From: Promethearchaeota archaeon
GTDB taxonomy: Archaea; Asgardarchaeota; Lokiarchaeia; Sigyniarchaeales; SOKP01
Length of the DNA stretch: 17,010 nt
Direction of reading: 5' to 3'
Assembly: GCA_030599585.1 (NCBI GenBank)
Contig: JAUVNS010000034.1
Coordinates: 1-17,010, forward strand
This document shows, one piece after another, positions 795-17,010 of the stretch (the stretch's first letter is position 1; each line of letters starts with the position of its first letter). A model generated the notes under the pieces. The model was not told the origin of the DNA and did not search any database. It saw only the letters and a list, made by a program, of their open reading frames with translations. The position numbers and the translations under genes are program-made.

Positions 795-2195
795 TTATTC
801 AGCGATCGTTTTATCGTGATATTTATGCCCTAAAGAACTCGCCGCTAATGTAAATCGATTAAATAATCCAGCGGGATCTTTAATTAATTCCATGACTTCG
901 TCTGGGTCCTTGTCTTTACAGAGTGAGCCTAAAGTACTAATAAATTTAACACCAGGATCAACAACTCCTGTAACTGCTCCATAACATCCTAAACAAGGAG
1001 CGTTAGCTTTATTGGGGCAAATCGTTCCGCACCCTGCTTGGGTTACTGGTCCTATGCAAATATACCCTTGTTCTAAAAAGCAAGTATCCATTGTAGACAA
1101 TCCTTCGTAGTCACGCTTTAATTGAACGGGAAGCTTATCAGTTATGTCTCGATCGCAGTGGCTACATACGGATTTAGAACTGAACTTGAAATTAGGATCG
1201 TCTCTTAATAAATATAATGAAATTCCAAGTATATCATCGATAATCTCAACTCCGGAGGGAGCAACAGCTAAAGCAAACTTTCTGTCCTCACCAATCTGTA
1301 CGTCTTTCAATTCAAAACTGTTTGGTTCGTATGCTAATCTCTGAAGTATATCTCCGCGGAAATAAAAGTTCGTAATGTTTGATGCTCCCGTGTATAAATC
1401 TAAAAAGTGTTGTATACTCGCTGCGTGTTCTGGAGCTAATTCTACTGTACTGAAAAGGATTTCTCTTAACTGTATAACTTTTTCGCCAGGCTTGTCTGTC
1501 GATTTAAAGCACCCAAAACAAATATCTCCGGTATTCGGACACATCAAATCGCATCCAGCGGCAGTAATTGAACCATAACATAAAATGTTCTCGTCTAAGA
1601 AACATCCTTTATTTTTTAAGTTGCACGAGTTGCAGACGCAGCCCTTTTTATCTAGCGTTGATGGTCCTTCTCCAACGAGAGTAAGCAAAAATGATATAGC
1701 AGCAATAATATTATCAGTAGTCGGCGGACAACCAGGAACAAATACGTCTACATCGATTATTTTATCAACATTGACGATAAAATCCTCAAATCCAGGAACA
1801 TTCTTAGTAGGTTCTTTCGGTTTTTTGTCTGTTATTGATTCAGTTTCAGTAAACTTACGTTTTACGAGCTCTTCTTTATCGTATAAGTTGGCTAAACCTG
1901 CTACGCTTCCATAACACGAACAAGCTCCAATTGCAACTATAATTGCACATTTCTGTCTCATTAGTTTAGCGTTTTCAGTATCCTTTTTAGTCCTGGCAAC
2001 GCCTTCAATAAACCCTACTAAGATATCTTTATCAGGTCTTTCAATAAGAGAGTCCAACTTAAAATCTACTACAGCTGGCCAGTAAACGATCTCTAATTGC
2101 GGTAATATTGGCAATAAACCTAAATGAGCGTTTAACAAGCTCTGATGACAACCCCAGCAACTACTAAGTTGCATGAACGCGACTTTTATCGGCAT
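795..2195 (-). CDS. mvhG: MvhG/VhuG-type [NiFe]-hydrogenase small subunit (group 3c-like), extended with a duplicated C-terminal Fe-S module
   Basis: Proximal-cluster motifs SSCWGCHQS, IEG, GACSCYG and PGCPP. Two copies of CxxC...CFL...C.G..T.AGC...CP.....CxGC (about aa 188-229 and 344-404). C-terminal DPAGLFNRFTL as in MvhG; downstream of mvhD and hdrA. Confidence 0.85.
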   Translation of the reverse strand: MPIKVAFMQLSSCWGCHQSLLNAHLGLLPILPQLEIVYWPAVVDFKLDSLIERPDKDILVGFIEGVARTKKDTENAKLMRQKCAIIVAIGACSCYGSVAGLANLYDKEELVKRKFTETESITDKKPKEPTKNVPGFEDFIVNVDKIIDVDVFVPGCPPTTDNIIAAISFLLTLVGEGPSTLDKKGCVCNSCNLKNKGCFLDENILCYGSITAAGCDLMCPNTGDICFGCFKSTDKPGEKVIQLREILFSTVELAPEHAASIQHFLDLYTGASNITNFYFRGDILQRLAYEPNSFELKDVQIGEDRKFALAVAPSGVEIIDDILGISLYLLRDDPNFKFSSKSVCSHCDRDITDKLPVQLKRDYEGLSTMDTCFLEQGYICIGPVTQAGCGTICPNKANAPCLGCYGAVTGVVDPGVKFISTLGSLCKDKDPDEVMELIKDPAGLFNRFTLAASSLGHKYHDKTIAE

Positions 2196-2283
2196 TTTAG
2201 ATCATTCTTTTTTTTTTATATAGATTTAATTCTAATTTAATTTATACTTTATACTTAATGAAAAAAATATAATAAAATGAAAC

Positions 2284-2964
2284 TTATGTAGGCTTTTCAG
2301 ATCGTGTAATGAGTTCTGTCCAAAATGGTTCTTTGTATTCACCAGAATAATAAATTTTGTTAATTTTTACCTTTATTGCGCCAGTTGAGCAAGCTGTTTC
2401 GCACGCGCCGCATTTAACACAAGTGGCTCTCACGTTGAAATCTACCTTCCTTTTTTTACCTAAATCGTTCACTCTATTTTCCTTGAAAAATGCACCAGTA
2501 GGACAAACTTCGAAACAAGACATACAAGAAATGCATAGGTTCCAATCAATCTTGACTTTTCCATCTACGTACACTTTTGCTATTTTGCCTGACTTCTTGC
2601 ATTTAACATTTTTATATTCTAATTTTGGTAGGACTTTTGCTTTAACAATTTCAATATCATCTAATGCAACGGGTACACCGTCCTTTTTTAAAGTTATCGC
2701 CGAAAAGGGACACATGTATGCGCAAGTTCCACAATAAGAGCATTTTTCTGCATCGGGAATATCTGGAAACAAATCTGCAGTTTTCTTTTTAACCAAATCA
2801 TGATGATATTGTTTGATAGCCTCTTGAGGACAAACTCTTGAACAAACGTAACATCCTGTACATAAATCTCTGTTAAATTCAATAGCCTGATTTCTCGAAT
2901 AGAAGCTTAAAATAACTTCGTTTTTGTGACTATTAACAATTCTCTCGACTCTCGGATACGACAT
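2284..2964 (-). CDS. Polyferredoxin with four [4Fe-4S] motifs (FwdF/MvhB-like)
   Basis: CTGCYVCSRVCP, CSYCGTCAYMCP, CISCMSCFEVCP and CVKCGACETACS; starts 2 nt after the mvhD stop. Confidence 0.85.
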   Translation of the reverse strand: MSYPRVERIVNSHKNEVILSFYSRNQAIEFNRDLCTGCYVCSRVCPQEAIKQYHHDLVKKKTADLFPDIPDAEKCSYCGTCAYMCPFSAITLKKDGVPVALDDIEIVKAKVLPKLEYKNVKCKKSGKIAKVYVDGKVKIDWNLCISCMSCFEVCPTGAFFKENRVNDLGKKRKVDFNVRATCVKCGACETACSTGAIKVKINKIYYSGEYKEPFWTELITRSEKPT

Positions 2965-2966
2965 TT

Positions 2967-3392
2967 TTAATTGCCTCCTTTTATTGGGCTTGGTCCTAGT
3001 TCCTTGAGTACTTCTGAATATTCTCTTGCGATTTCTGTTAAGACAACACCTTCAGAAGCAGAAACAAATATGTACTTCAATCTTTTAGGATTAATTCCAA
3101 ATTGTTCTAAATATCTCTTAAGTATCGGCATTTTTCGTACCGTTTTAAGATTTCCTTCTACATAATGGCAATCACCGGGATGACAATGGCTAACCATTAC
3201 TCCATCAGCGCCATTCATGAAGGCATTAATAACAAATTGAGGATCAATTCTCCCTCCACACATAACTCTTACGATTCGTAAGTTAGCGGGTCGTTGCATC
3301 CTTGAAGTTCCTGCCCCATCGGCTCCGGCGTAAGAACACCAATTACAGAATATTCCTAAGACGTAAGGATCAAATACTTCTTGACTACTCAA
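2967..3392 (-). CDS. mvhD: Hydrogenase/Hdr [2Fe-2S] adaptor subunit MvhD
   Basis: FCNWCSYAGAD, RIVRVMCGGRIDP, GADGV, HCHPGDCHY.EGN and VSASEG signatures; TTG start overlaps the hdrA stop by 8 nt. Confidence 0.95.
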   Translation of the reverse strand: MSSQEVFDPYVLGIFCNWCSYAGADGAGTSRMQRPANLRIVRVMCGGRIDPQFVINAFMNGADGVMVSHCHPGDCHYVEGNLKTVRKMPILKRYLEQFGINPKRLKYIFVSASEGVVLTEIAREYSEVLKELGPSPIKGGN

Positions 3393-5409
3393 CTTCTACT
3401 TCCTCTTGTTTTGGTTTTTTAAGAATAGCGGTTTCAATCATCGGTAAAATTTGTGCATCGTCGAAATGGTTTTGAACAATAGCTTTCGAAGGGCATGCGG
3501 CTACACATGTACCGCACCCTTTACACAAAATATCATTTATTTCTGCTACACTTTCAATTTCATTAAAAGTTATTGCATTAAATGGACAAAGACCGATGCA
3601 ACTTTTACATCCCGCACATTTATGATCTAAAACTGTTGCGAAGTAAGGTATAATTTCAACTTCCTTTTGAGACATAAGTGTTGCAGCGCTCGATGCAGCA
3701 GCTTTAGCTTGAGCAACGGTATCGGGAATATCTTTCGGTCCAACTACATTTCCAGCAACAAATATACCGTCAGTTAATGTATCGACTGGTCGTAATTTAG
3801 GATGTGCTTCCATTAAGAAACCATCTTCGGTTTTAGTCGCCGTTACATTGAAAATCCGGGCTATATCATCGATATCTTCTCGAGGTTCTAAACCAATTGA
3901 CAAGACTACCATATCAACTTCAAGCTCAATTGGTCTTTGTAGCGTGGTATCCTCAGCGCGTATTATTACGTTATCATTCTCACCTTCTAATATCTCTGCC
4001 ACTCGTCCTCTAATAAACTTAATTCCGTAGTTCTTCGCCGTATCGTTGTAAAATTCTTCGTAACCTTTCCCAAATGCTCTAAGATCAATATAGAATATAA
4101 ATAATTGAGTATCAGGGTGTTTTTCTTTATAGGACCTGGCTTGTTTCGTGGCATACATACAACAGACTCTTGAGCAGTATTTTCTGCCTTTTCCGGTAAA
4201 TTCTCGACTGCCTACGCATTGAACCCAAACTATTGATTTCGGTTCTTTTAAATCTGACGGTCTTTTAACTTTTCCTTCAGTGGGTCCATAGGAACTTAAT
4301 AACCTTTCCATCTGAAGTGCGTTAATAACATTTTTATGTCTTCCGAATCCATACTGCCCCATTCTTCTTGCATCGTATGGTTGAAATCCTGTAGCTAAAA
4401 TAATGGTTCCAACTTTGACATCTACATATTCGGGTTTATCGTCGTATCGAACTGCGGAAGTAGGGCATGCTTCGGCGCAAATTCCGCACCTAATACAATG
4501 ATTCATATCGATTGTATACTCACCAGGTACAGCTTGAGGAAACGAGAGATAGATTGCCTTTCTTGGCTTCATTCCCAGGTCAAATTCGTTAGCGCACTCA
4601 ACTGGGCATATGTCAATGCAGTGCCCACATCCTGTACAAATATTCTGATCAATATAGTGAGGATATTTTTCTATTCTGACTTGAAAATTACCTACATATC
4701 CATCTAACGATACGACTTCAGAATACGTCATCAATTCAATGTTAGGATTTCGGGCTACTTCGCTCATCTTTGGAGTTGTAATACACGATGAGCAGTCCAT
4801 TGTAGGGAATGTTTTATCAAGCTGAGCCATATGTCCACCAACTGTTGGGGATTTTTCTACTAAATAAACTTTATACCCTGAGTTTGCTAAATCTAAAGCT
4901 GCGTTTATGCCCGCGATTCCAGCACCTACTACCAATGTCGCAGGTTCAACTTTTACAGTGGTAACCTTTAGCGGCTTAAGTGCTCCAGATTTAGCTACGG
5001 CCATTCTAATATGGTCCTTAGCGATCCTAGTAGCACCAGGAACATCGTTCATTGTTACCCATGTACAGTGTTCACGAATATTTGCCTGTTCATAAAGGTA
5101 TTTGTTTAGTCCACCTTCTTCACATGTTCGTCTGAAGGTTTCTTCGTGCATTCTGGGAGAACAGGCGGAAACCACAACCCGATTTACTTTTCCAGCTTTG
5201 ATATCTTCCATTATCATGCCTTGTCCGATATCGGAACACATGAACTTATATTCACTTGCTAAAGCAACATTTGGTAGCGTTCGTGCGTAATCACACAATT
5301 TTGGAACGTCTACAACGCCTCCGATGTTGACTCCACACCAACAGATGTAAACCCCAATTTTTGGAGGCTCTTTGCCAGTTATTTTAATCCCATTGTCTGC
5401 TTTTACCAT
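3385..5409 (-). CDS. hdrA: Heterodisulfide reductase subunit A (FAD, electron-bifurcating)
   Basis: IGVYICWCGVNI, ACSPRMHE, NIREHC, GAGIAG, GGHMAQLDKTFPTMDCSSC, inserted ferredoxin pair, QCVGSR, YCSRVCC, EAHPKLRPVDT, GPKDIPD and a C-terminal ferredoxin pair; GAGGT Shine-Dalgarno-like motif upstream. Confidence 0.97.
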   Translation of the reverse strand: MVKADNGIKITGKEPPKIGVYICWCGVNIGGVVDVPKLCDYARTLPNVALASEYKFMCSDIGQGMIMEDIKAGKVNRVVVSACSPRMHEETFRRTCEEGGLNKYLYEQANIREHCTWVTMNDVPGATRIAKDHIRMAVAKSGALKPLKVTTVKVEPATLVVGAGIAGINAALDLANSGYKVYLVEKSPTVGGHMAQLDKTFPTMDCSSCITTPKMSEVARNPNIELMTYSEVVSLDGYVGNFQVRIEKYPHYIDQNICTGCGHCIDICPVECANEFDLGMKPRKAIYLSFPQAVPGEYTIDMNHCIRCGICAEACPTSAVRYDDKPEYVDVKVGTIILATGFQPYDARRMGQYGFGRHKNVINALQMERLLSSYGPTEGKVKRPSDLKEPKSIVWVQCVGSREFTGKGRKYCSRVCCMYATKQARSYKEKHPDTQLFIFYIDLRAFGKGYEEFYNDTAKNYGIKFIRGRVAEILEGENDNVIIRAEDTTLQRPIELEVDMVVLSIGLEPREDIDDIARIFNVTATKTEDGFLMEAHPKLRPVDTLTDGIFVAGNVVGPKDIPDTVAQAKAAASSAATLMSQKEVEIIPYFATVLDHKCAGCKSCIGLCPFNAITFNEIESVAEINDILCKGCGTCVAACPSKAIVQNHFDDAQILPMIETAILKKPKQEEVEVE

Positions 5410-5423
5410 AATTTTTACCTCTT

Positions 5424-6377
5424 TTAAGCGTTCTCTCCAATTTTCTTTAGAATAGGTTTTACAGGCGTAAATGGAGGCACTCCTTTTAAATCAGGACTCA
5501 CTTTCATTCCCAACTCTTCGGGTGTCATTCCCATCGCTAATCCAATTAATTGAGTAAAGTATAAAACCGGAATATTGAATGGAGCACTTATTTTATCTTT
5601 AAAGATATTGTTTACTTCTACTTGTCCTAAGTCAAACTGAAGATGACAAAAAGGACAGCATGTTATAATCGCATCTGCATTTGCAGCCGAAATATTTTCC
5701 AATTTTTCGCGTGTATAATCTAGAGACAATTCTTTGAAAGCGCCTCTTACGCCCCCACCGGCCCCACAACACATGTTTTTATCTCGATAATCTAGACTTT
5801 TACACCCCGATATCTCCATTAATTCGTCGAAAAAAGTTGGGTTCTCAACATCAGTTCCCCAAGGTCTTATCTCTTTTGGTTTTGTGAGATGACAACCGTA
5901 GTGTAACGCTAGATTTAGATTTAAGGGTGTTTTTCTTCCGTATTTAGTTCTATTTCTTATTTTTTCAGGTCCTATATCGTTATAAAATATATCTACAATA
6001 TGGCGGATTTCAATACTACCTTTATACTCCTTTCCAATTTTTGCGAGGTGCTCGTTAACCATTCTTTTCTTTTCTTTGTTGTGCTTTAATGTATGGTTTA
6101 CTTCAAGTAAACTTCCATAGCATCCATTACACATTAATGTGATATCTACACCGAGTTCTTCAGCAATGACAATGTTTCTTGCTCCTATTACCAACCAAGT
6201 GTCTATATCAAACCCGCGAAATACACCAGGCGCAGGACAACACGACGCTCCTTTCATGTCTATTAATTCAATTTTAAATTTCTCAGCCACGGCTCTCGTA
6301 GCTCGCTCGATAAATGGATACCTGTTAGGGATGACGCATCCAAGGAATAACGCGAATTTTAAATCATTACTTGCCAT
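5424..6377 (-). CDS. hdrB: Heterodisulfide reductase subunit B (two CCG domains)
   Basis: FLGCVIPNRYP, GASCCPAPG, CNGCYGSL, HYGCH, CCGAGGGVR and CPFCHLQFD.GQ: methanogen-type HdrB motifs. Confidence 0.96.
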   Translation of the reverse strand: MASNDLKFALFLGCVIPNRYPFIERATRAVAEKFKIELIDMKGASCCPAPGVFRGFDIDTWLVIGARNIVIAEELGVDITLMCNGCYGSLLEVNHTLKHNKEKKRMVNEHLAKIGKEYKGSIEIRHIVDIFYNDIGPEKIRNRTKYGRKTPLNLNLALHYGCHLTKPKEIRPWGTDVENPTFFDELMEISGCKSLDYRDKNMCCGAGGGVRGAFKELSLDYTREKLENISAANADAIITCCPFCHLQFDLGQVEVNNIFKDKISAPFNIPVLYFTQLIGLAMGMTPEELGMKVSPDLKGVPPFTPVKPILKKIGENA

Positions 6378-6382
6378 TCTAA

Positions 6383-6952
6383 TTAGCCTCCTTTATCATC
6401 TTTCTTTTCATCATAATCACCTACTCCTGTAAGCTTATCAAATTCCGTACTCTTTAGTAATGCCTGAACTTCTTTTTCAGCTTTAGGATATTTGTGTGTA
6501 GTAGGTGGAACACTAGGCAACTTATGGAACTTGCGCAATTTATTCCATTTTTCTTCGTTAATTGGAACTCCGTGCCCCGTGTTGTAAAACATTTTGCATA
6601 AAGCAATGTGAGGTGCTTGCATGTAACCTTCTTGAACTGCTAAATTTCTGAGGTATATTATTACATCTGTTACCGGTACACCTCGAGGGCATCTTTCCAA
6701 GCACGTATAACACGTACTACAAAACCATAATTCTTTATCTGAAAAAATTTCTTCTTTAAGTCCTAATTGCACTTTTTTCATGAGAGACCTAGTGCGTAAA
6801 GCAGTTCTTCTTCCACTTGGGCAACTTCCAGAACAGGTTCCACATTGAATACACGCACTTAATTCTAAATATCCCGCATCTCTTAATAAATTGGACAAAT
6901 CGTCCGTGATTTCCGTGATTTTATTAGTTTTTAATACTTCCAACATATCCAC
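6383..6952 (-). CDS. hdrC: Heterodisulfide reductase subunit C
   Basis: CIQCGTCSGSCPSGRRT, WFCSTCYTCLERCPR, TGHGVP and PPTTH. The GTG at 6952 sits within AGGTG, so the true start may be ATG at 6946. Confidence 0.95.
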   Translation of the reverse strand: MDMLEVLKTNKITEITDDLSNLLRDAGYLELSACIQCGTCSGSCPSGRRTALRTRSLMKKVQLGLKEEIFSDKELWFCSTCYTCLERCPRGVPVTDVIIYLRNLAVQEGYMQAPHIALCKMFYNTGHGVPINEEKWNKLRKFHKLPSVPPTTHKYPKAEKEVQALLKSTEFDKLTGVGDYDEKKDDKGG

Positions 6953-7214: not shown

Positions 7215-7451
7215 TTACTCGTTGTTTCTCGTTAGTTCTTTTAGAAATTCTAACTGTTTTTCTTCTGGTAAAAAAGCTAATTCTTTCTTGATTTCCTTTA
7301 GCTCGTCTTTTGAAAGGTTTAATTTATGTAATTCTTCTCTGACTTCTTTGGATAAGATTGAAAATATTCGATAGAAATATTTCTTTACGACTTCTATTTT
7401 CTCAAATCCTCCATTATTTTCATCGCTACTTATCAGGCTCACCAAATGCAT
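7215..7451 (-). CDS. Small hypothetical helical protein (78 aa)
   Basis: ATG to TAA, co-oriented with its neighbours and filling a gap; E/K/L-rich amphipathic composition (LSKEVREEL...ELAFLPEEKQLEFLKEL). Confidence 0.6.
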   Translation of the reverse strand: MHLVSLISSDENNGGFEKIEVVKKYFYRIFSILSKEVREELHKLNLSKDELKEIKKELAFLPEEKQLEFLKELTRNNE

Positions 7452-7532: not shown

Positions 7533-10397
7533 TTAATTTTTTATTATAGGTAATGAAAAGAAAAAAGTGCTTCCTTTATTTCGTCCTTCTGACTCCACCC
7601 AAATTTTACCATCGTGAAGGTTAATTAATTCTTTTGAGATATACAATCCGAGTCCTGTTCCTTCGATGCCTACATCCCAACCCTGGCCATATCTTTCAAT
7701 TTTTCCAAACTGCGTAAAGAGTTGTGCGATCTCTTTCTGAGTTAATCCGATACCCGTATCTTTTATCGATACTATATAATGACCGTTTTTTTGTTCGGAA
7801 TCTATTGTGATTTGTCCTCCTACAGGAGTATATTTTACAGCGTTGATTATTAAATTTGTTATAACTTCGTAAATTTTTTCTTTATCGAATTCTGTAAAGA
7901 TTTTTTCTTTTATATTTACCGTAATCTTCTGCTCTCTCAAACTAGCAATTCCTTGTAATTGTTTTACGCAAAAATTAATTAAAAATGTAAGATCTTCTTT
8001 TTCCTTTCTTATATTTAGCAATCCTTGTTCTAATTGCGAACTTTCTACTAGTGAATTGATGTAGTCCTCAAGGCGCTTACTCCCATTCTTGATCTCCTCC
8101 AAGATCGAGATAACATCGTCGTCTAATTTATCAGAATGTAGTTTTAATAACAAATCTGTGAAACCTTTTATGGATATTAACGGTGTTTTTAATTCGTGGG
8201 AGGTTCGGGAAAATAAATCGCTTTTTAATTTATTAATTTCGCTCAACATTTTATTTTGTTCTTCTAAGTGTTGCTGAGACTTCCATCTTCTTTGCTCTAT
8301 TTCAAGAGCATCGCAAATTAAGAAGAGGACTAATTTGTTTTGATTAGAAAGCGTAGGGTTTTCGGTAAACAATACAACCAACAAATCGTTTAAATCGTTC
8401 CCCGACATTATTAATTTACCGTAGCAAGCTTTAATGTTTTGGTTCATAATGAAATGATCTGTTTTGCTATATTCCGTTTTATCGATGTCATAAAACTCCT
8501 GAGTGAAATCGTGGTTTTCTACAAATATCTGGCTTACAAATAAATTTCTTTTAAAATCATCTGAGTTATATATTTTAACATCCCCCTTATGAGACATTAC
8601 TCTATATTGTTCTTTTTCTTCACGAATAATTTTGTTGATATACAAAACAACATCGCCATCAAGTAATTTAAGGCAAGTTTTTAGCAATAATTCGATGTTT
8701 TGTTGAGTATCCGTCGTGTAGTTTAAAAAGTTTATATTCAGTTCGTAAATTAATTCTTCGTAAATCTTCTTTTCTGTGACATCCTCTAACCACAATCGAA
8801 AACTTAGTAAATTACCGTTTTCATCGTGTTGGTTTAATCTTTTACCTTGGAGCCACTTCATTTTACCTTCGTTGGTAATAACTCTAAACTCTATCTCTTT
8901 TCCTTCTTCAGAATTTAATAATCTTTGCAAATCATCGGGATGAATAATTTCATCCATTAATTTTTTATTTACAATTTTGATATCTTGATAACCAATGAAT
9001 TCTAGCAGTCTAGGGTTGAGGTAAGAGATGCTATTATTTTCTAATTCAATTTCTAAAACTCCAATTGTTGACGTCTCTAATAAGTCCCTAAGTTTTTCTT
9101 CTGAATCCTTAATTTTTTGTTCCGTTAACACTTTTTCTGTTATATCCTCCACAGTAAAAATTATATTCTCTATCTTCCCGTTGCTTCCAATAAGAGGAGT
9201 ACCATTAATTGAAAGGAGGATATCTCTATTCTTAGATAATCTAAAGGTTGCGTGATAGTCTAATAGTGGCTTTTTCGTTTGCATAATAATTTGAAAAGGA
9301 AGCTCTTGTTTTGGTATGGGATTGCCTTCTGAGTCTACAAGTTTGAATTTTGATGCTATAAAGGATTTTTTCAGTAGTTCTTCTTTAGGATAATGCAAAA
9401 CCTTCTCAGCTTGTGAATTTACGTAAATAATATGTCCCTGTGTATCAATAGATAGAATCCCTGCAGGATTTGTTTCCATGATTCTTTCCAGTCTTTCATG
9501 TTGCATTCGTAAATTCTCTTCAGCGTTCTTTCTTTCGGTGATATCTTCAAATGTTATTAAAAGTCCTGCTACTTTACCGTCAGAATTTAGTAAAGGAATC
9601 CGATTTACATCGATCCAGATTTTTTGTCCATTTCTACTTATCCAATATTCATCTGAATGAAAAACTGCTTTATTAGATTCAATAACTTTTTTCTCTTGTT
9701 GTCTATTAAACTCAATCTGTTTGCTGTCCCAGAGTAATTCTTCGTCCTTTTTAGCGATAATATTTTCGGGATGGTCAATTCCTATTAAATTTGCATAATT
9801 GTCATTACACCCTAAATAACTTAAATCAATGTCTTTCCAGATGATATATTGTGGTATATTCTCCATAACCATTTGGAGCATTTCGTATGAGCTTTGGAGG
9901 GCTTCTTCGTATTTCTTAGGATTGAACAATTTCCAAAATCGTATTTCGGGAATGGTTTCAGTTATTTTTTTAAACCGATCTTCCGTATCCTTTAAGTTTA
10001 CTTCGATTTTCTTTTGCTTTGAAATATCTTTAAGAATTACTAAAATCTTGTTATTTTTATTCTCATCAACGAACTTCTTTGCTTTAATTTCAGCCCACAC
10101 AATTTCGCCTTTCTTTGACAGCAACCTTATTTCTTGGAAATAACCAAAAATTTCAACACCTTTTTTTAAAAATTTAGCGATTTTTTTTATATCATCAGAA
10201 AAAAATATTGTTAGAAAAGGCTTGTCTGTCAGGTCATTTTCAGAATATTCAAGCTTATCTAGTAAAGGGCATTGATTGATAAGTTCTATATCGAGATCTT
10301 TATTCTGATTAATGACAACAACTAAGTCGTTAACGATTTCCATAAAAATTTGAAATTGAGTCTTAATATTGTCTTGTTTGTCGTCGTCAGCAATCAT
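7533..10397 (-). CDS. Soluble multi-PAS sensor histidine kinase (about four PAS, a GAF-like segment, HisKA, HATPase_c)
   Basis: PAS/PAC ends DISKQK, DITERK, DITEK and DVTEKK; H-box TSHELKTPL; N-box NLIINAVKY; G1 DTGIG; F-box FTQF; G2 GTGLGL; no transmembrane stretch. Confidence 0.93.
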   Translation of the reverse strand: MIADDDKQDNIKTQFQIFMEIVNDLVVVINQNKDLDIELINQCPLLDKLEYSENDLTDKPFLTIFFSDDIKKIAKFLKKGVEIFGYFQEIRLLSKKGEIVWAEIKAKKFVDENKNNKILVILKDISKQKKIEVNLKDTEDRFKKITETIPEIRFWKLFNPKKYEEALQSSYEMLQMVMENIPQYIIWKDIDLSYLGCNDNYANLIGIDHPENIIAKKDEELLWDSKQIEFNRQQEKKVIESNKAVFHSDEYWISRNGQKIWIDVNRIPLLNSDGKVAGLLITFEDITERKNAEENLRMQHERLERIMETNPAGILSIDTQGHIIYVNSQAEKVLHYPKEELLKKSFIASKFKLVDSEGNPIPKQELPFQIIMQTKKPLLDYHATFRLSKNRDILLSINGTPLIGSNGKIENIIFTVEDITEKVLTEQKIKDSEEKLRDLLETSTIGVLEIELENNSISYLNPRLLEFIGYQDIKIVNKKLMDEIIHPDDLQRLLNSEEGKEIEFRVITNEGKMKWLQGKRLNQHDENGNLLSFRLWLEDVTEKKIYEELIYELNINFLNYTTDTQQNIELLLKTCLKLLDGDVVLYINKIIREEKEQYRVMSHKGDVKIYNSDDFKRNLFVSQIFVENHDFTQEFYDIDKTEYSKTDHFIMNQNIKACYGKLIMSGNDLNDLLVVLFTENPTLSNQNKLVLFLICDALEIEQRRWKSQQHLEEQNKMLSEINKLKSDLFSRTSHELKTPLISIKGFTDLLLKLHSDKLDDDVISILEEIKNGSKRLEDYINSLVESSQLEQGLLNIRKEKEDLTFLINFCVKQLQGIASLREQKITVNIKEKIFTEFDKEKIYEVITNLIINAVKYTPVGGQITIDSEQKNGHYIVSIKDTGIGLTQKEIAQLFTQFGKIERYGQGWDVGIEGTGLGLYISKELINLHDGKIWVESEGRNKGSTFFFSLPIIKN

Positions 10398-10660
10398 GTT
10401 CTTACATCCTTAGTCATAACTAATTTTTATTTTCTAACCTTCGTGTGGCTTCTAATTAAACAAGTAAAACCACATTTATTTATATATATAGTATAAAGAT
10501 ATTAGCAGTATTGTGATATTGCGTAAGATCATAGAAAGAATGTTATATTCTAATAACCATAAAAATTTATTTCTACAAAAATTATTAGACTATAACAAAT
10601 TATTAAAAATTGTAACAATTGGGAAGTTTCCTAAATAGTATAGGAGTGTGTTCAGTATCT

Positions 10661-11503
10661 ATGGATGATTTTTTAAGTTGTTTGTCATGTGGTAAGAAGT
10701 TAGGTTCAAAATCGAAGAATAATACACATGGACAATGCACAGAATGCCTTTTGAAACTAGAACTTAAAACAGAAGATATAAATTTTGAATTCATTCAAAA
10801 ATATCTGCAAGGAATTTTAGATTTCTTTGTATCTGACGTAAGTGCAGCATTTAACAAAGATCCCGCTGCACGTACTTTGATTGAAGTGTTAACGAGTTAT
10901 CCCGGTATAAAAGCTGTATTATTGTATCGTATAGCCCACTTTTTTTGGAAATTGAATATTCCATATATTCCAAGATATATTTCAGATATTGCAAGAGAGT
11001 TAACTGCAATTGAAATTCATCCTGGTGCCGAAATTGGTTCCGAATTTTTTATAGACCATGGTGCGGGAGTTGTAATAGGCGAAACTGCAGAAATTGGGAA
11101 TAACGTAACATTTTACGCGGGAGTAGTCTTAGGGGGCACTAATTTAGAGCAAATTAAGAGACATCCCACTTTAGGAGATAATATCGTTGTTGGTACTGGA
11201 GCCAAAATCTTAGGACCCATCACTATCGGTGATAATGTTAGAATTGGAGCGAATTCTGTAGTAATACACGATGTACCTCCAAACTGCGTTGCCGTTGGGG
11301 TTCCTGCAAAAATTGTATCTAAGAAAGGAGAAAAAATAGACAAGATAGACCTACGACACGGAGATCTCCCAGATCCTATTTCAATTGCTATTGAAATGTT
11401 AGATAAACGACTTAAAGAGATCGAACTCCATTTCCCTGATATCAAAAAACCGAGTAAAGACGAATTAGAAATATTTTACGGCGAATATGGAGAAGGAATT
11501 TAA
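10661..11503 (+). CDS. cysE: Serine O-acetyltransferase with an N-terminal zinc-ribbon-like extension
   Basis: DPAAR, YPG, IEIHPGA, FIDHGAGVVIGETA, KRHPTLG, IGANSVV and GVPAK hexapeptide-repeat motifs. The ORF track starts at TTG 10619; ATG 10661, downstream of AGGAG, is preferred, but the start is uncertain. Confidence 0.93.
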   Translation: MDDFLSCLSCGKKLGSKSKNNTHGQCTECLLKLELKTEDINFEFIQKYLQGILDFFVSDVSAAFNKDPAARTLIEVLTSYPGIKAVLLYRIAHFFWKLNIPYIPRYISDIARELTAIEIHPGAEIGSEFFIDHGAGVVIGETAEIGNNVTFYAGVVLGGTNLEQIKRHPTLGDNIVVGTGAKILGPITIGDNVRIGANSVVIHDVPPNCVAVGVPAKIVSKKGEKIDKIDLRHGDLPDPISIAIEMLDKRLKEIELHFPDIKKPSKDELEIFYGEYGEGI

Positions 11504-11545
11504 GCGTAAAGGGCTTATTTCAAAATAAATAAAAAGGTGAAAATT

Positions 11546-12475
11546 ATGGCTAATTATTACAATAATATTATAGAAACAATAGGAAAGACCCCCTTAGTAA
11601 AGCTTAATCGAATTACTAAAGATGTTAAACCGAATATATTTGTTAAGTTAGAATCTTTTAACCCTGGTGGTAGCGTTAAGGACAGAATTGGCATGAACAT
11701 GATCCTTAAAGCAGAAGAAGAAGGCATAATTGATAGCGACACTATTATCGTTGAGCCCACGTCGGGAAACACAGGGATTGGTCTTGCAATTATTTGTGCT
11801 ACAAAAGGCTATAAATTAATCCTTACGATGCCTGAAAGTGTTTCAGTTGAAAGAAGACAAATTCTTCTTGCGTATGGTGCTGAAGTTATTCTCACGCCAA
11901 AAGAGGGAGGCATGAAAGGTTCTATAACGAAAGCAGAAGAAATCGCAAAGGAAAGAGGAAAAGTGCATATCCCTCAACAATTTAGGAATTTTGCTAATCC
12001 AGATATCCACAGGAGGACCACGGCCAAAGAAATATTTAACGACTTAGATGGTCAAGTCGCCGGATTTGTTGCTGGAGTTGGAACAGGAGGAACTATAACT
12101 GGAGTAGGTGAAATATTAAAAGATAGAGTTGGAGCAAGGTTTAGAGTTTATGCTGTGGAGCCTAAAGAATCTGCGATTTTATCAGGAGGAGAACCTGGAC
12201 CACATAAAATTCAAGGTATAGGAGCGGGATTTATACCAGAAGTGCTGAACACCAAAATATACGACAAAATTATTACTGTAACCTACGATGATGCCGTCGC
12301 AACAGCAAGAAAATTAGCTAAATTGGAAGGAATTTTTGTTGGTATCTCTTCGGGAGCCTGTGCGTGGGCAACTATCTATGAGGCTTCAAAAGACTTCGAA
12401 GAAGGAGATAATCTTGTAGCTTTACTACCAGACGGTGGAGAAAAATATCTCTCAACTGATTTATTTCGTTTTTAA
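11546..12475 (+). CDS. cysK: Cysteine synthase A (O-acetylserine sulfhydrylase)
   Basis: IGKTPLV, NPGGSVKDR (PLP lysine), PTSGNTG, QQFRN, GVGTGGT, GPHKIQGIGAG and GISSGA. ATG 11546 follows an AGGTGA Shine-Dalgarno motif; the ORF track's GTG at 11537 lies inside it. Confidence 0.96.
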   Translation: MANYYNNIIETIGKTPLVKLNRITKDVKPNIFVKLESFNPGGSVKDRIGMNMILKAEEEGIIDSDTIIVEPTSGNTGIGLAIICATKGYKLILTMPESVSVERRQILLAYGAEVILTPKEGGMKGSITKAEEIAKERGKVHIPQQFRNFANPDIHRRTTAKEIFNDLDGQVAGFVAGVGTGGTITGVGEILKDRVGARFRVYAVEPKESAILSGGEPGPHKIQGIGAGFIPEVLNTKIYDKIITVTYDDAVATARKLAKLEGIFVGISSGACAWATIYEASKDFEEGDNLVALLPDGGEKYLSTDLFRF

Positions 12476-12482
12476 GAAGAAT

Positions 12483-13379
12483 TTATTCAATTTTTATTGT
12501 ATCTAATAACAATATATCGTAAATTTTCTTCCAATATTCTTCAATGTTCCACTTGGATTTGTCTTTTATTCTTTCAGATAAATCAAGAAATATCTCTTTT
12601 ATTTCTAACGTGTGAAAATAGTTAATTGACGGTGCGATAACCGCAATCATATATTGTTTTTCTCCAAATCTTTCTTTTTTGTCAGGATAAGAATCAAAAT
12701 AGAGGTAACCACGAGTTTTTAGATTTTTTATTTCTAATAAAACACCCTCTGCCTTTGTAATTTTATCATGACCATAAATTGATGTTGCTACCGTAAATAA
12801 TTGATTTACAATGTCATCTAAAGGAATTGGAAAAGATTTTTCCTCAGGGAAATATCGATTTAATTCTGGGCCGAATTTATCGTCCCAAAATGCTAGAAAT
12901 AAGCAGATAAAAAATTCTTGTTGACTCTCAATAGGGCTTTTCATTTCCATATTCGCAGTTGAAAATGATTCTTCAATTTTGTTGTTTAATGCGTTAATTC
13001 TTTTATTACGGGCAATTCTACCTGCTAATATTGCGAGTAAATCTTTCTCGTCAAAAGGTTTAGTTAAATAATCGTCCGCCCCAAGCAGCTTACCAAATCT
13101 TATATCCTTAGGAGTAGTACGCGCTGAAAGAAATAGGAATGGAATTCTATTCCAACGCGGCTCGTTTGAGATTACTTTAAAAAATTCGTACCCATCCATT
13201 TTAGGCATCATGATGTCGCTTATAATAATATCTGGGATTTCGCTAAGGGTAGAGAGAATTTCTATAGCTTCTTTTCCATTTTTCGCAGTGAGAGGTTTAT
13301 AATTATTAGATTCTAGTAATAAATTTAAGTTATACAACAAATCAACATTATCTTCAACTACAAGTATAAGAGGTTTCAA
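12483..13379 (-). CDS. Response regulator: REC domain plus a probable longin/uDENN-like C-terminal domain
   Basis: REC: LVVED, IISD55IMMP, FLSA and YLTK107PF are all intact. The C-terminal part begins FFICLFLAFWDDKFGPEL and shows no HTH. TTG start. REC is certain; the longin call is inference. Confidence 0.88.
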   Translation of the reverse strand: MKPLILVVEDNVDLLYNLNLLLESNNYKPLTAKNGKEAIEILSTLSEIPDIIISDIMMPKMDGYEFFKVISNEPRWNRIPFLFLSARTTPKDIRFGKLLGADDYLTKPFDEKDLLAILAGRIARNKRINALNNKIEESFSTANMEMKSPIESQQEFFICLFLAFWDDKFGPELNRYFPEEKSFPIPLDDIVNQLFTVATSIYGHDKITKAEGVLLEIKNLKTRGYLYFDSYPDKKERFGEKQYMIAVIAPSINYFHTLEIKEIFLDLSERIKDKSKWNIEEYWKKIYDILLLDTIKIE

Positions 13380-13430
13380 GGCAAATCTAACTGAATTTCA
13401 TTTTAAATTTCTATTACAATAGAATTAGGC

Positions 13431-16037
13431 TTAGTTATTATATATGTCTTTTTCAATTCTCGGTAAAAAAATGTAAAAAATTGCTCCATTTCCATATTCG
13501 CTTTCAACATATACTTCTCCATTATGAAGTTCGATCAATTCTTTCGCAATAGGTAATCCAAGACCCGTTCCGGGGATATCACTTACCTGATCTGATCTAA
13601 AAAATCTCTGAAATATAGATGGAATATCTTTTTCTGAAATTCCAATTCCGTTATCTTCAAATTGGAATAAAACTCCATCCTGAGCATTAGTATTATATTG
13701 CCCTTTATAATGATCGACTGCTATAACCTTAATACTATTCTTTTCATTAGAATACTTCATAGCATTGTCAATAAAAATACGAAATATTTGGTCAACTTTC
13801 TTACTGTCGCCATATAATTTGATGTCATCGCTAATATCTACACTAAAAGTTATATTTTTCTGGTTTCCAATTGGTTCCATCAGTGTTAAGATATCCTTAA
13901 GGACTAAAGATGGCTGATATTTGTTCCATTTCATTTTTCCTTTCCCATCGTCTAATCTCGAAAGCGTTAAAATATCTTCTATCAAGTCTTTGAGGAGGTA
14001 GATATTTCTTGAGATTCCTTCTCTCAATTTTTTCTCGATATCTGGAGTAATTTTATCCGCGTGGTTTTCTAAAAATTCAATCGACATTGTCAATACGCTA
14101 ACTGGTGTTCTTAATTCGTGGGAAACAGTAGAAACAAAACGGCTCAAATTTTCCTCCGCTTCTTTACGAGCGGTTATATCCATTCCATATATGTTCGCAT
14201 ATTCCTTTCCTTTAATAGGGACAATAAAGAGGTTATAAATTCGGTCTTTAATTTCTAACTCCATATCAATATTTTTATTTTTTGAAAATGCGACATTGAC
14301 AGGCGAAGTGAGAACATCTGGAATTCTACTACCTTCCCCTATTCTGAATAAATTTTGGCTAGCTTTATTAGCTAAAAGGACATAATTATTACTTAATCTC
14401 AGTATAGGATTAGGGTTCTCCAATGGAAACCTTGCCATGTCAGCAATTTTTTCTTGTGCAATTTTTCTCTCAGTAACATCGCTCACAAAAGCCATTGCAC
14501 CTTCAAAATTTCCATCTTCATCGAAAATTGGAGACGCTTTTAGAGTGGTAAATACTTTTTTACCAGATTTGTGGATAAACTCAAACTCATGATCTTCCTC
14601 TATGCCCTGCTTACGTCTTTCAAAATTTTCCTCTGCTATTTTTTTTCCATTCTCGTCCATAAATTCATAAAGATTAACTCCAATCATTTCGTCAATCTCA
14701 TAACCAAACATATCTGCCATACTTTGATTCACAAATGTAGTATTTGTTTCATCGTCGATTACCCATATGCCCTCTAGGGAATCTTCAACTAACTTTCTAT
14801 ATTTTTCCTCTGATTTTTTCATCGCAGTTTCAAACTTACTGCGTTCAGTTATATTTGTGAAATTTTGAATTATTCCTACGAATTCCCCCTTAGTATTTCT
14901 GTAAGGAACAGATTGCACAATACTTACGATTTCAGTACCCTCATCCAACTTAGTAGTTAATTCGTACTCATAATACTCTTTACCTTCTTCGATTTGTTTC
15001 ATTGAGCACTTATCAGTATCACAAAGATGCCCAAGTGGCGTTAAAGCAGGATCGTAACATTTCATCCCTAATATTTTCTTTTCAGATATGTGAAAAAGAT
15101 TAGTATACGTATGATTTACTCGTATAATTTCGCAGCCTTTATTGATAACTCTCAGCGGAAGAGAAGCGTTAAATATTTGGTTAAATTCTGAATGAGTGAG
15201 TTCTAAATCATCTGCTTTTTGTCTTAATGATTCGTCGCTTAACTTTAATTTTCTAAGTAACAATCCAAATGGATTCGTTAAGCCAATTTCGATTATTGCT
15301 TTATATATAAAGAAAAATGCGACTATTTTTAATATATGACCGATAAGATTTGAGAAGTCAAATACGCTCACATAAAAGGTGAACGCCAGTTCTGAAACCA
15401 TCGTTGTACTAATGGAAATAACGAGTAAGAAAAAGATCTTCTTATCAAATTCGTTTCTAAACTTATACAAAATTAAAATTGAAGCTAATAAAATGGAATT
15501 TATTACATACTCACTAACAATTTTAAAAGGTGTTAACCCCTGACCTACGATAAAACAGGTTGGAAATAATCCCATGAATATTGTATAAAAAAGAATTGAG
15601 ATAATAATTACACCACTACCCATCAGATAACTGGCATTTACTTTTTTATTAATAGCAAGCGAAGCAAGAAGATAAGAAACTGATTGCCAATATCTTGCTG
15701 CAATCCATAATTGCGTGGGAAGATTCGCATCGTAACTAAGAAAGATTTTCATTCCTGAATAGGATAATGTGTGGAACAAATCTATTACGCTTATAAATAA
15801 GAAGGAGGTTCCAACTATTAAGAAGAAGGAACTATTCATGTACTTTCGAGAGTTCCAACCAATAAAAAAAATTCCGCCCGAAATTACTATGCTAATAACC
15901 TCAGCTATCGAATGAAAAAGTAAATAACTATAGGTGCTCAACAAAAATGTTAGCAATATCCCCGTTATAAGGATAAAATACTCTATAAAGTCCCGCCAAA
16001 AGACTGATTTCTCTGATTCAGATTCTTTAGGAAACAA
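13431..16037 (-). CDS. Membrane sensor histidine kinase: MASE3, PAS, PAS, short PAS-like segment, HisKA, HATPase_c
   Basis: Hydrophobic N-terminal ~250 aa with MASE3 signatures YLLFHSIAE, DLFHTLSY.GM, NLPTQLWIAARY, GLTPFKIVSEY, SELAFTFY and GHILK; H-box VSHELRTP; DNAMKY, DNGIGI and GTGLGL. TTG start. Confidence 0.93.
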   Translation of the reverse strand: MFPKESESEKSVFWRDFIEYFILITGILLTFLLSTYSYLLFHSIAEVISIVISGGIFFIGWNSRKYMNSSFFLIVGTSFLFISVIDLFHTLSYSGMKIFLSYDANLPTQLWIAARYWQSVSYLLASLAINKKVNASYLMGSGVIIISILFYTIFMGLFPTCFIVGQGLTPFKIVSEYVINSILLASILILYKFRNEFDKKIFFLLVISISTTMVSELAFTFYVSVFDFSNLIGHILKIVAFFFIYKAIIEIGLTNPFGLLLRKLKLSDESLRQKADDLELTHSEFNQIFNASLPLRVINKGCEIIRVNHTYTNLFHISEKKILGMKCYDPALTPLGHLCDTDKCSMKQIEEGKEYYEYELTTKLDEGTEIVSIVQSVPYRNTKGEFVGIIQNFTNITERSKFETAMKKSEEKYRKLVEDSLEGIWVIDDETNTTFVNQSMADMFGYEIDEMIGVNLYEFMDENGKKIAEENFERRKQGIEEDHEFEFIHKSGKKVFTTLKASPIFDEDGNFEGAMAFVSDVTERKIAQEKIADMARFPLENPNPILRLSNNYVLLANKASQNLFRIGEGSRIPDVLTSPVNVAFSKNKNIDMELEIKDRIYNLFIVPIKGKEYANIYGMDITARKEAEENLSRFVSTVSHELRTPVSVLTMSIEFLENHADKITPDIEKKLREGISRNIYLLKDLIEDILTLSRLDDGKGKMKWNKYQPSLVLKDILTLMEPIGNQKNITFSVDISDDIKLYGDSKKVDQIFRIFIDNAMKYSNEKNSIKVIAVDHYKGQYNTNAQDGVLFQFEDNGIGISEKDIPSIFQRFFRSDQVSDIPGTGLGLPIAKELIELHNGEVYVESEYGNGAIFYIFLPRIEKDIYNN

Positions 16038-16065
16038 GATAAGTTCACTTTTTTCTTAGTAATTT

Positions 16066-16608
16066 TTAATTTATAGCTGATTTTTGAAAAACTGTATATA
16101 TAGATGTTGTATAAATTTGATGTGGAAAGTTCTGTGGAAGTATATCTTTTATCTGTTTTATTAAAGTCTTGATTAGTTCTTGGTTTATTTCTTTGTTTAT
16201 TAACTCCATGTCAGGATCAAATTTATGTAGGAATAAAGAAAAATCTGGAGTTAACTTATTTTCCTGTAATAATGTAATAATTTTAGTTAAATACTGTAAG
16301 GAAAGATCGTATCGCCCTCGATCTTGAATATCTACCACGTAAATAAGTTTGCTCGATCCTTTAATGTGATTTTTAAAGTTTTTAACATAATCTTCTCTAA
16401 ATTTTTCTTGCCCCCCAAAATCCCAGATATTGAAATCTAAGCCCATAGTATTAAATTTGTTTATTTCAAATCCTCTTGTTGGTTTTATAGCGCTAAACGA
16501 CGTAAGATTTTTCACACCTTTTAAACATAACACAATAGATGACTTACCACTGTTATCTAAACCCATTATAACTATTTTTTTAGTAATCTTAGAGTTATTC
16601 CTTTGCAT
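16066..16608 (-). CDS. Ras-superfamily small GTPase, Asgard Rag/Arf-like
   Basis: G1 GLDNSGKS, G2 PTRG, G3 WDFGGQ, G4 HKFD and G5 TSIY. Confidence 0.92.
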   Translation of the reverse strand: MQRNNSKITKKIVIMGLDNSGKSSIVLCLKGVKNLTSFSAIKPTRGFEINKFNTMGLDFNIWDFGGQEKFREDYVKNFKNHIKGSSKLIYVVDIQDRGRYDLSLQYLTKIITLLQENKLTPDFSLFLHKFDPDMELINKEINQELIKTLIKQIKDILPQNFPHQIYTTSIYTVFQKSAIN

Positions 16609-16610
16609 AT

Positions 16611-16949
16611 TTAATATTTAATTCCTAGTGTATCTAAAATATCTTCATTATTCATATTAATTCGCGCAACAAAGGCTCTAATTTCAGCTAGGAGCTTAAA
16701 AACTTCCATATTCCTGATTTTATAATGTTTAATTGTTTTTTTGTTTAATACAATTCTATCAAAAATAATGAGGTTCTTATTAGTTAAAACCTTTAAATGT
16801 TGAGATATTGTGGATTGGGATTTTTTCAGAGCTGATTGAATTTCAGAAGAGGTCTTCTTCCCATGATACAACAAATCTAATATCTCTAATCGAGTTTGAT
16901 CGGCTAGTACCTTCAAAAACTCGGTGATATCTTTTTTAGGTTCACTCAT
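16611..16949 (-). CDS. ArsR/SmtB-family winged-helix transcriptional regulator
   Basis: LKVLADQTRLEILDLL...SQSTISQHLKVL ArsR signature; stop is 2 nt before the GTPase ATG. Confidence 0.92.
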   Translation of the reverse strand: MSEPKKDITEFLKVLADQTRLEILDLLYHGKKTSSEIQSALKKSQSTISQHLKVLTNKNLIIFDRIVLNKKTIKHYKIRNMEVFKLLAEIRAFVARINMNNEDILDTLGIKY

Positions 16950-17010
16950 AAATTCTATTTAGTTGTATTTTAGAATTATTGGTGTTAATCGCATTTAAAC
17001 GTATTTTTAA

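Follow-up and report, generated by a model that had tools for sequence, protein, structure and literature searches.

A receiver-longin response regulator linked to a Rag-like GTPase in a Lokiarchaeia genome: a candidate phosphorylation-gated GTPase-activating protein

What does a response regulator act upon when its output domain is a longin and its gene lies close to that of a small GTPase? The question is raised by a four-gene cassette on contig JAUVNS010000034.1 of a 4.85-Mb Lokiarchaeia metagenome-assembled genome (MAG); this entire contig, of 17,010 nt, is the window analysed here. On its minus strand, an ArsR-family gene is followed by genes for a stand-alone Rag-like GTPase, a MASE3-PAS histidine kinase and a receiver-longin protein, separated by 2, 28 and 51 nt. 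The open reading frame (ORF) list and Pfam matches thus agree with the four closely spaced, co-oriented genes described in a first-pass annotation of the sequence. Based on sequence and structure prediction, we consider that the receiver-longin protein is probably a phosphorylation-gated, homodimeric, arginine-finger GTPase-activating protein (GAP) for the co-encoded GTPase, with the signal passing from the kinase to Asp55 of the receiver and on to the longin dimer.

Residues 135-298 of the regulator have no Pfam family. An AlphaFold2 (AF2) model of this output domain, built with 93 homologues, has two strands, a helix, three strands, two helices and a further C-terminal helix, which is the longin topology (predicted local distance difference test, pLDDT, 80.8). 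Chains of GATOR1 and FLCN-FNIP2 were the top Foldseek matches (E 2.5e-4 to 7e-4). With VIA-align, the best match was the Loki roadblock-longin 8yqg (Z 12.9; root-mean-square deviation 3.2; 134 aligned residues), with Lst4 at 11.6, C9orf72 at 11.5 and the FLCN complex at 11.2; MglB scored 7.9-8.3, as opposed to 11-13 for longins. Atlas classed the domain as SMCR8-like (TM 0.72), and the leads of its feature search with the longin were all under 0.9. At the sequence level, a narrow longin alignment retrieved no significant family from Pfam or PDB sequences. With a broader profile, the top PDB sequence match was human C9orf72, across the whole domain although weakly (E 0.056), and Pfam Folliculin was matched by 4 of 50 longin members (best E 0.002, weak alone). 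The AF2 model and both fold searches therefore uphold the earlier description of the output domain as longin-like rather than helix-turn-helix.

Candidate residues for GAP function lie in the same domain. By the broader profile, W165-D166-x3-G170-P171 aligns exactly to the WD..GP motif of C9orf72, and among 78 GTPase-linked homologues W165, D167 and G170 are invariant and P171 is kept in 99%. Arg237 is in a loop between strands 222-232 and 240-249 of the full-length AF2 model; it is invariant in those 78 homologues and present in 120 of 123 overall. In eukaryotic longin GAPs, the loop position of the arginine finger is that of SMCR8 R147, FLCN R164 and NPRL2 R78. As far as the accessible text of a 2025 study in Traffic goes (PMC12290439), the GP motif is found in FLCN, NPRL2, SMCR8 and C9orf72 and is absent from non-GAP longins, C9orf72 W33-D34 and SMCR8 R147 are essential, and GP/Arg longins occur in Asgard archaea, with the identity of their GTPase partners (ArfR or Rag/Gtr) posed as an open question. 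The WD, GP and candidate loop Arg elements, spread over two subunits in eukaryotes, are combined in one chain of the regulator, suggesting that its longin output acts as a homodimer. The longin ends at residue 298, and neither Pfam nor the AF2 model revealed a DENN or NPRL2-type C-terminal domain in the regulator.

This locus has one receiver-longin, and an Arg-less second copy is found only in a few relatives. Four loci (L125:5960-7890, L128:5573-7453, L178:4473-9957 and L179) hold two receiver-longins each, one with the loop Arg and one without it, recalling the catalytic/non-catalytic split of SMCR8/C9orf72; the first copy of L179 is broken. In the tandem receiver-longins of L153 and L155, Arg is kept in both copies. 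Cassette-type longins are also fused to hybrid kinase-receiver proteins, HATPase and RsbRD_N (P0150, P0167, P0235 and P0129), and the hybrid kinase-receiver-longins of L187 and L188 have GTPases on either side. In Ca. Heimdallarchaeum (L162:7025-7930 and L163:7037-7942), a receiver-longin beside a kinase has lost the Arg, has no GTPase within 7 kb and is possibly repurposed. The cultured Ca. Lokiarchaeum ossiferum (L170:7008-9062; UYP46867.1) encodes a longin-TPR protein with WD..GP and RGG and, 10 nt downstream, a GTPase of 171 aa.

The GTPase itself retains its catalytic Gln, Q67 (codon 16410-16408). Its motifs are G1 GLDNSGKS, T44, G3 DFGGQ, G4 HKFD and G5 TSIY, and G16, G21, K22, T44, D63, G66, Q67, K129 and D131 are invariant in the alignment. 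We take HKxD (G4) and TSI(Y/W) (G5) to be Rag-type motifs, and the best PDB matches are 8yl2 and 8zla/9m28 (LokiRagM, an Asgard Rag-like GTPase). Gtr1_RagA scored above its Pfam cut-off with Arf nearly equal to it, so the protein may be of either the Rag or the ArfR type. The ORF stops at residue 180 (orthologues span about 171-199 aa) and has no C-terminal roadblock or CAAX. About nine polar residues precede beta1, with no Gly2 and no hydrophobic segment, hence no Arf-type N-terminal helix or myristoylation site. Cassette GTPases form one clade (support 100/99) inside the Rag-like group, which also holds the fused Rag-like GTPases of this genome. A second stand-alone clade adjoins other receiver-longins (below), and a single origin of the two was neither shown nor rejected (approximately unbiased test, p 0.27).

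The complex of two longins and the GTPase, with GTP and Mg, was modelled. The interaction prediction score from aligned errors (ipSAE) was 0.78 against 0.08 for the best control; in calibration, 58 of 80 solved pairs and 2 of 110 mismatched ones passed the score mark, figures that apply only roughly here. The regulator-GTPase interface for which the first-pass annotation had proposed a check is thus predicted. Contacts agree between separate runs to at least 92%, with a partner pLDDT of 83 or more. In the model, longin copy 1 reaches the GTPase with residues 165-172, R237 and its first helix, and copy 2 with its GP loop. They meet the P-loop and both switch regions (I and II), and the closest contacts fall on Q67. 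This geometry is similar to that of C9orf72:SMCR8:ARF1 (PMC8213707). Taken together, the residues of the predicted interface show no higher conservation than the remaining ones, and mutual information between the paired alignments gave no interface signal at an effective sequence number of 36, which is uninformative. Pairwise identities of the two proteins correlate (mirror rho 0.76), which is not counted as evidence because kin share history.

Whether the longin would have GAP or guanine nucleotide exchange factor (GEF) activity had been left open by the first-pass annotation, and of the two the GAP is favoured by the GP motif, the position of the candidate arginine finger and the retained Gln of the GTPase. 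Binding as a GEF, effector or scaffold appears quite unlikely to us. Most longin dimers are GEFs (PMC10933270), DENND, Mon1-Ccz1 and TRAPP likewise match the output-domain fold in VIA-align, and Myxococcus RomRX was reclassified from GEF to effector, according to the part of that paper available (PMC13408092). However, GAP-type longins outrank GEF longins in both Foldseek and VIA-align, the accessible literature reports the GP motif only in GAP-type longins, the loop Arg is near-invariant here, and the predicted contacts centre on Q67.

The receiver and the kinase supply the parts of a phosphorelay. Asp55 is the predicted phospho-acceptor of the receiver, and E9/D10, S85, Y104 and K107 are intact by motif check. 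D55 is conserved in 117, K107 in 116 and Y104 in all of 121 homologues; in the homologue alignment, G96, L99, G100, D102 and G120 reach 100% and R124 94%. The alpha4-beta5-alpha5 face is strongly conserved, and alpha5 extends as a 31-residue helix, residues 111-141, in the full-length AF2 model (pLDDT 84.1). Hydropathy predicts seven transmembrane helices in the MASE3 domain of the kinase, whose His box is SHELRTP with His640 (codon 14120-14118), a sequence present in 61 kinases of the surveyed loci. Neighbouring genes thus encode a complete H box and ATPase domain and an intact phospho-Asp residue, the sequence features of a classical two-component pair of HisKA kinase and receiver. In one relative (locus L034 of genome G133), the MASE3 kinase is split into ORFs of 272 and 523 aa by a frameshift or an assembly error.

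As a mechanism, we propose that the MASE3-PAS kinase would autophosphorylate His640 and hand the phosphate to Asp55, and that the receiver would govern assembly or exposure of the longin homodimer, akin to the eukaryotic longin GAP heterodimers. Protomer 1 would lay its WD-x3-GP loop onto the P-loop and switch II (Q67) and offer Arg237 as the arginine finger, protomer 2 would cup switch I, and both would accelerate GTP hydrolysis by the co-encoded Rag-like GTPase. Phosphorylation may switch the GAP on, with the receivers dimerising through alpha4-beta5-alpha5 and the long alpha5 helix. OmpR/PhoB regulators dimerise via this face upon phosphorylation (PMC2586830), and the conserved face together with the 31-residue helix makes phosphorylation-driven assembly our preferred direction of control, tentatively and at somewhat less than even chances; within the same model, phosphorylation could instead turn the GAP off. 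We are doubtful of the longest version of the pathway, in which a symmetric longin homodimer assembled by phosphorylation would be the GAP for a dedicated Rag-like GTPase whose GTP form controls an ArsR-type transcription factor.

The GAP might also work without gating through the MASE3 kinase, being constitutive or having Asp55 fed by another kinase. A candidate is a second kinase of the window, a cytoplasmic protein of 954 aa with four PAS domains and no regulator adjoining it or nearby, which is a possible second input to D55. The next gene, a conserved ORF of 78 aa, has no Pfam match, and both genes are syntenic within the genus near the cassette. Five loci have ArsR, GTPase and regulator in order and no kinase, the kinase is swapped in L292 and L111-type loci, and longins dimerise unaided (8yqg). 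We nevertheless rate an ungated or otherwise fed GAP as very unlikely, since at least 95% of homologues retain D55, K107 and Y104, and in most loci the gene directly upstream of the regulator encodes the MASE3 kinase.

Is the linkage of regulator and GTPase more than proximity? Within the class, the longin was detected in 133 of 161 genomes, and a profile search of the phylum found it in 167 of 400 genomes; with this query there was no match in a 4.4-Mb single-contig genome that is 93% complete. Regulator homologues carry the names Promethearchaeota or Lokiarchaeota, and a related-loci search with the regulator returned mostly bacterial receivers. The synteny set comprised 121 loci including the window, taken best matches first and hence biased toward two genera; L101, where the adjoining GTPase is of another class, was left out of the cassette members. 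The full four-gene order is present in 65 of the 121 loci (64 of the 120 others), across five genera and another family, and thus recurs in the survey that the first-pass annotation had suggested. In 17 further loci, the gene directly after the regulator encodes a GTPase from a separate clade; the longin clade there is largely separate too, and the kinase is often a divergent, non-MASE3 one. The remaining loci are inverted or truncated, apart from some longins without a GTPase nearby.

The genome under study encodes two receiver-longins, the second being the C50 paralogue, which belongs to the 17 loci and adjoins a GTPase of the different clade. Ranked by the cassette profile, the top two of its 69 small-GTPase domains are unfused Rag-like G domains, each adjoining one receiver-longin, and the next ten are fused GTPase proteins. 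A background of 10.5% for ORF proximity within 3.5 kb of any such domain, and the fact that an order conserved among kin is not independent evidence, lend something to the earlier caveat of chance adjacency in a GTPase- and kinase-rich genome. However, only that small fraction of ORFs lies so close, yet both receiver-longins do; the linkage survives rearrangement, in paralogues and in a second family, and receiver-longins occur among kinases and fused GTPases in Heimdallarchaeota-labelled genomes too; chance is effectively refuted and we give it almost no credence.

Other observations weigh against a kinase-gated GAP dedicated to this GTPase. Arg237 was equated to SMCR8 R147/FLCN R164 by topology and predicted contact rather than by residue-level superposition. 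The predicted complex resembles solved longin-GAP complexes, so its score may mirror that likeness, or a memory of those structures, and not binding of this pair. Within 3.6 kb of about 15 copies of receiver-longins or related longins there is no GTPase, and these copies still keep the Arg. The kinase is absent or swapped in several loci, so that its cognate pairing is not fixed. In the reciprocal, GTPase-anchored survey, about 87 of 150 listed GTPase matches adjoin a listed longin match (coordinates compared by hand) and about 60 are not near one; among 40 of these others that were examined, 3 had a receiver-longin, 4 had a MASE3 kinase cut by the contig end and 33 had neither.

These counts bear on a further explanation, in which ArsR and the GTPase form the true functional unit, with the kinase and the receiver-longin as neighbours under shared regulation and with the longin serving chiefly as GAP for other Rag-like GTPases. 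ArsR is directly upstream of the GTPase in 20 of the 40 loci; 14 of these, spread over four families (f1, f3, f5 and f7), lack both regulator and MASE3 kinase. The orphan receiver-longins with their Arg fit this explanation as well, close cousins of a true partner can pass the complex test, and about ten fused Rag-like GTPases of the genome offer alternative longin targets. On the other hand, two distinct GTPase clades adjoin receiver-longins despite inversions and kinase loss, and each regulator of this genome sits beside one of its two best-matching unfused Rag-like G domains. Where the regulator is missing, the GTPase often adjoins another longin, namely a single Mon1/Fuz-type longin in 10 of the 40 loci and a GP-longin fused to a GTPase-like domain in 5. 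We therefore regard this explanation as unlikely and retain the phosphorylation-gated GAP. Some longin usually accompanies the GTPase clade, and it is the kinase that can be exchanged; the four-gene unit of the first-pass annotation stands as a conserved linkage, but one whose kinase varies most and in which ArsR with the GTPase is the pair found most widely.

The ten Mon1/Fuz-type loci hold a sister group of the cassette GTPase followed by a longin of 130-170 aa, often preceded by a protein of about 750-790 aa with an N-terminal hydrophobic segment, and are a possible second GTPase module. In three loci of families f5 and f7 (L271, L280 and L284), a GP-motif longin with an RGG loop is fused to a GTPase beside the ArsR-GTPase pair.

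The ArsR protein has no cysteine, as is the case for 59 of 68 orthologues. Its recognition helix is conserved across the 68 (SQSTISxHL) and contains its sole conserved His, and the Cys/His ligand sites of ArsR-SmtB metal/sulfide sensors are not found. An acidic C-terminal tail, D-I-x-D-T-L, is conserved, including in kinase-less loci, and is absent from three unrelated ArsR-like paralogues that were checked. The AT-rich upstream regions held no convincing ArsR operator palindrome, and a sigma-70 promoter and terminator scan, which is ill-suited to archaea, stayed at chance level. ArsR is the likeliest candidate for the pathway's output or autoregulator, and may regulate the operon, act as effector of the GTPase or do both.

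Coordinates of the cassette and of neighbouring genes are collected in Table 1. The CysE/CysK genes converge on the stop codon of the regulator with a 7-nt gap; this block is conserved in genus g1, and a thioredoxin-reductase/HSP20 block takes its place in genus g12. Recurrent neighbours of the cassette are a divergent Lrp/AsnC gene, cysteinyl-tRNA synthetase (CysRS), CysK/CysE, thioredoxin reductase and HSP20, which hints at an amino-acid, sulfur or redox input signal. Further along the window is a heterodisulfide-reductase electron-bifurcation cluster, as judged from its gene content. Contig C20:1-137 is a 92.7% identical copy of window positions 16875-17010, either a strain variant or a duplicate (MAG contamination is 8.9%); beyond the copy, C20 carries two Lrp-like genes, CysRS and a roadblock-like protein, matching the layout of relatives. 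The window start and contig C18 have 99 identical nt in common.

Table 1. Positions of cassette genes, regulator elements and neighbouring genes in the 17,010-nt window
Feature	Coordinates	Strand	Details
ArsR-family winged-helix protein	16611..16949	-	112 aa; Pfam HTH_5 E 6e-14
Stand-alone Rag-like (Rag/ArfR group) small GTPase	16066..16608	-	180 aa; Gtr1_RagA 1e-22, Arf 2e-21
Membrane sensor histidine kinase	13431..16037	-	868 aa; MASE3 2e-78, two PAS, HisKA, HATPase_c
Response regulator, whole ORF	12483..13379	-	298 aa, TTG start; Response_reg 4e-24, residues 5-118
Receiver domain of regulator (residues 1-125)	13005..13379	-	Asp55 codon 13217-13215
Longin output domain (residues ~154-298), FLCN/SMCR8/NPRL2/C9orf72 type	12483..12920	-	Fold and profile searches
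WD-x3-GP motif W165-D166-D167-K-F-G170-P171, beta1-beta2 loop	12867..12887	-	Conservation, C9orf72 alignment, predicted Q67 contact
Arg237, candidate arginine finger, beta4-beta5 loop	12669..12671	-	Conservation, predicted interface, codon read
CysE-like acetyltransferase and CysK-like cysteine synthase	10619..12475	+	
Second kinase	7533..10397	-	954 aa
Conserved ORF	7215..7451	-	78 aa
HdrC-HdrB-HdrA-MvhD, polyferredoxin, MvhG-like (Oxidored_q6) protein	795..6952	-	MvhG-like protein 466 aa, with Cys-rich extension

If the proposed reading is true, arginine-finger longin GAP chemistry would predate eukaryotes, a homodimeric ancestor would be supported, and the cassette would show a wiring of Rag-like switches to nutrient or stress input before mTOR. 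If the longest version of the pathway, of which we are doubtful, holds as well, the cassette would run all the way from kinase to GAP, GTPase and transcription in an Asgard archaeon and be a living model of the homodimeric ancestor of C9orf72-SMCR8, FLCN-FNIP and GATOR1; the Arg+/Arg- tandem copies of relatives would replay the catalytic/non-catalytic split independently. PMC10933270 and the accessible text of PMC12290439 assign no Asgard GAP-target pair, and the cassette offers two small soluble proteins, of about 145 and 180 aa, as a candidate pair that can be tested. GTPase genes of MK-D1 are generally outside operons with longins (PMC10933270).

The closest published relatives of the regulator are NPRL2-like longins fused to two-component domains in Asgard archaea (Liu et al., bioRxiv 10.1101/2020.10.19.343400, Fig. 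5c); their authors also proposed growth control centred on two-component systems. The regulator fits that description, and its exact architecture may be drawn in their Fig. 5c; for these fusions the accessible text mentions neither a GTPase partner nor a cassette, an arginine finger or ArsR. The GP/Arg Asgard longins of PMC12290439 have the same motifs as the regulator but, in the accessible text, no receiver fusion, gene context or assigned GTPase. C9orf72-SMCR8 (for Arf), FLCN-FNIP (for RagC/D) and NPRL2-NPRL3 of GATOR1 (for RagA/B) resemble it in fold, GP, WD and, probably, the loop arginine, and in the predicted cup of two longins on switch I/II. They are, however, heterodimers with DENN or other C-terminal domains, in which WD (C9orf72) and Arg (SMCR8) are split, whereas the regulator has both in one receiver-fused chain with no DENN and no partner subunit; the cassette GTPase, in turn, is without the roadblock tail of Rag and the membrane anchor of Arf. 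Judged by its motifs and models, the regulator appears to work like a longin GAP subunit and not to be a member of the eukaryotic complexes.

Bacteria offer two further comparisons. Actinobacterial conservons/AGPS (CvnABCD; PMC4316618, PMC13343842) are likewise four-gene operons with a membrane histidine kinase and a small GTPase, the remaining members being a roadblock-fold GTPase regulator and a small accessory protein. They have no response regulator, a roadblock (MglB-type) GAP and an MglA-family GTPase. The cassette differs in its phospho-Asp receiver, its longin and its Rag-like GTPase, and the resemblance is best regarded as analogy, not homology of the system. In the MglA-MglB-RomR/RomX system of Myxococcus, a response regulator also controls a small GTPase, but the genes are unclustered with mglA, the output of RomR is no longin, and the GAP, MglB, is a separate roadblock protein. 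The first-pass annotation knew of no description of the arrangement. This was too broad for the longin/two-component fusion, which the accessible text of Liu et al. had already reported in 2020, and for kinase and small-GTPase systems as such, but it holds for the cassette and its GTPase partner, for which the literature on receiver and longin in Asgard and Loki archaea, with subscription papers thinly covered, yielded no paper. Thus the fusion, the GP/Arg Asgard longins and the bacterial kinase/small-GTPase systems were already known, and what appears to be new here is a candidate GTPase partner and the conserved cassette that links it to the regulator.

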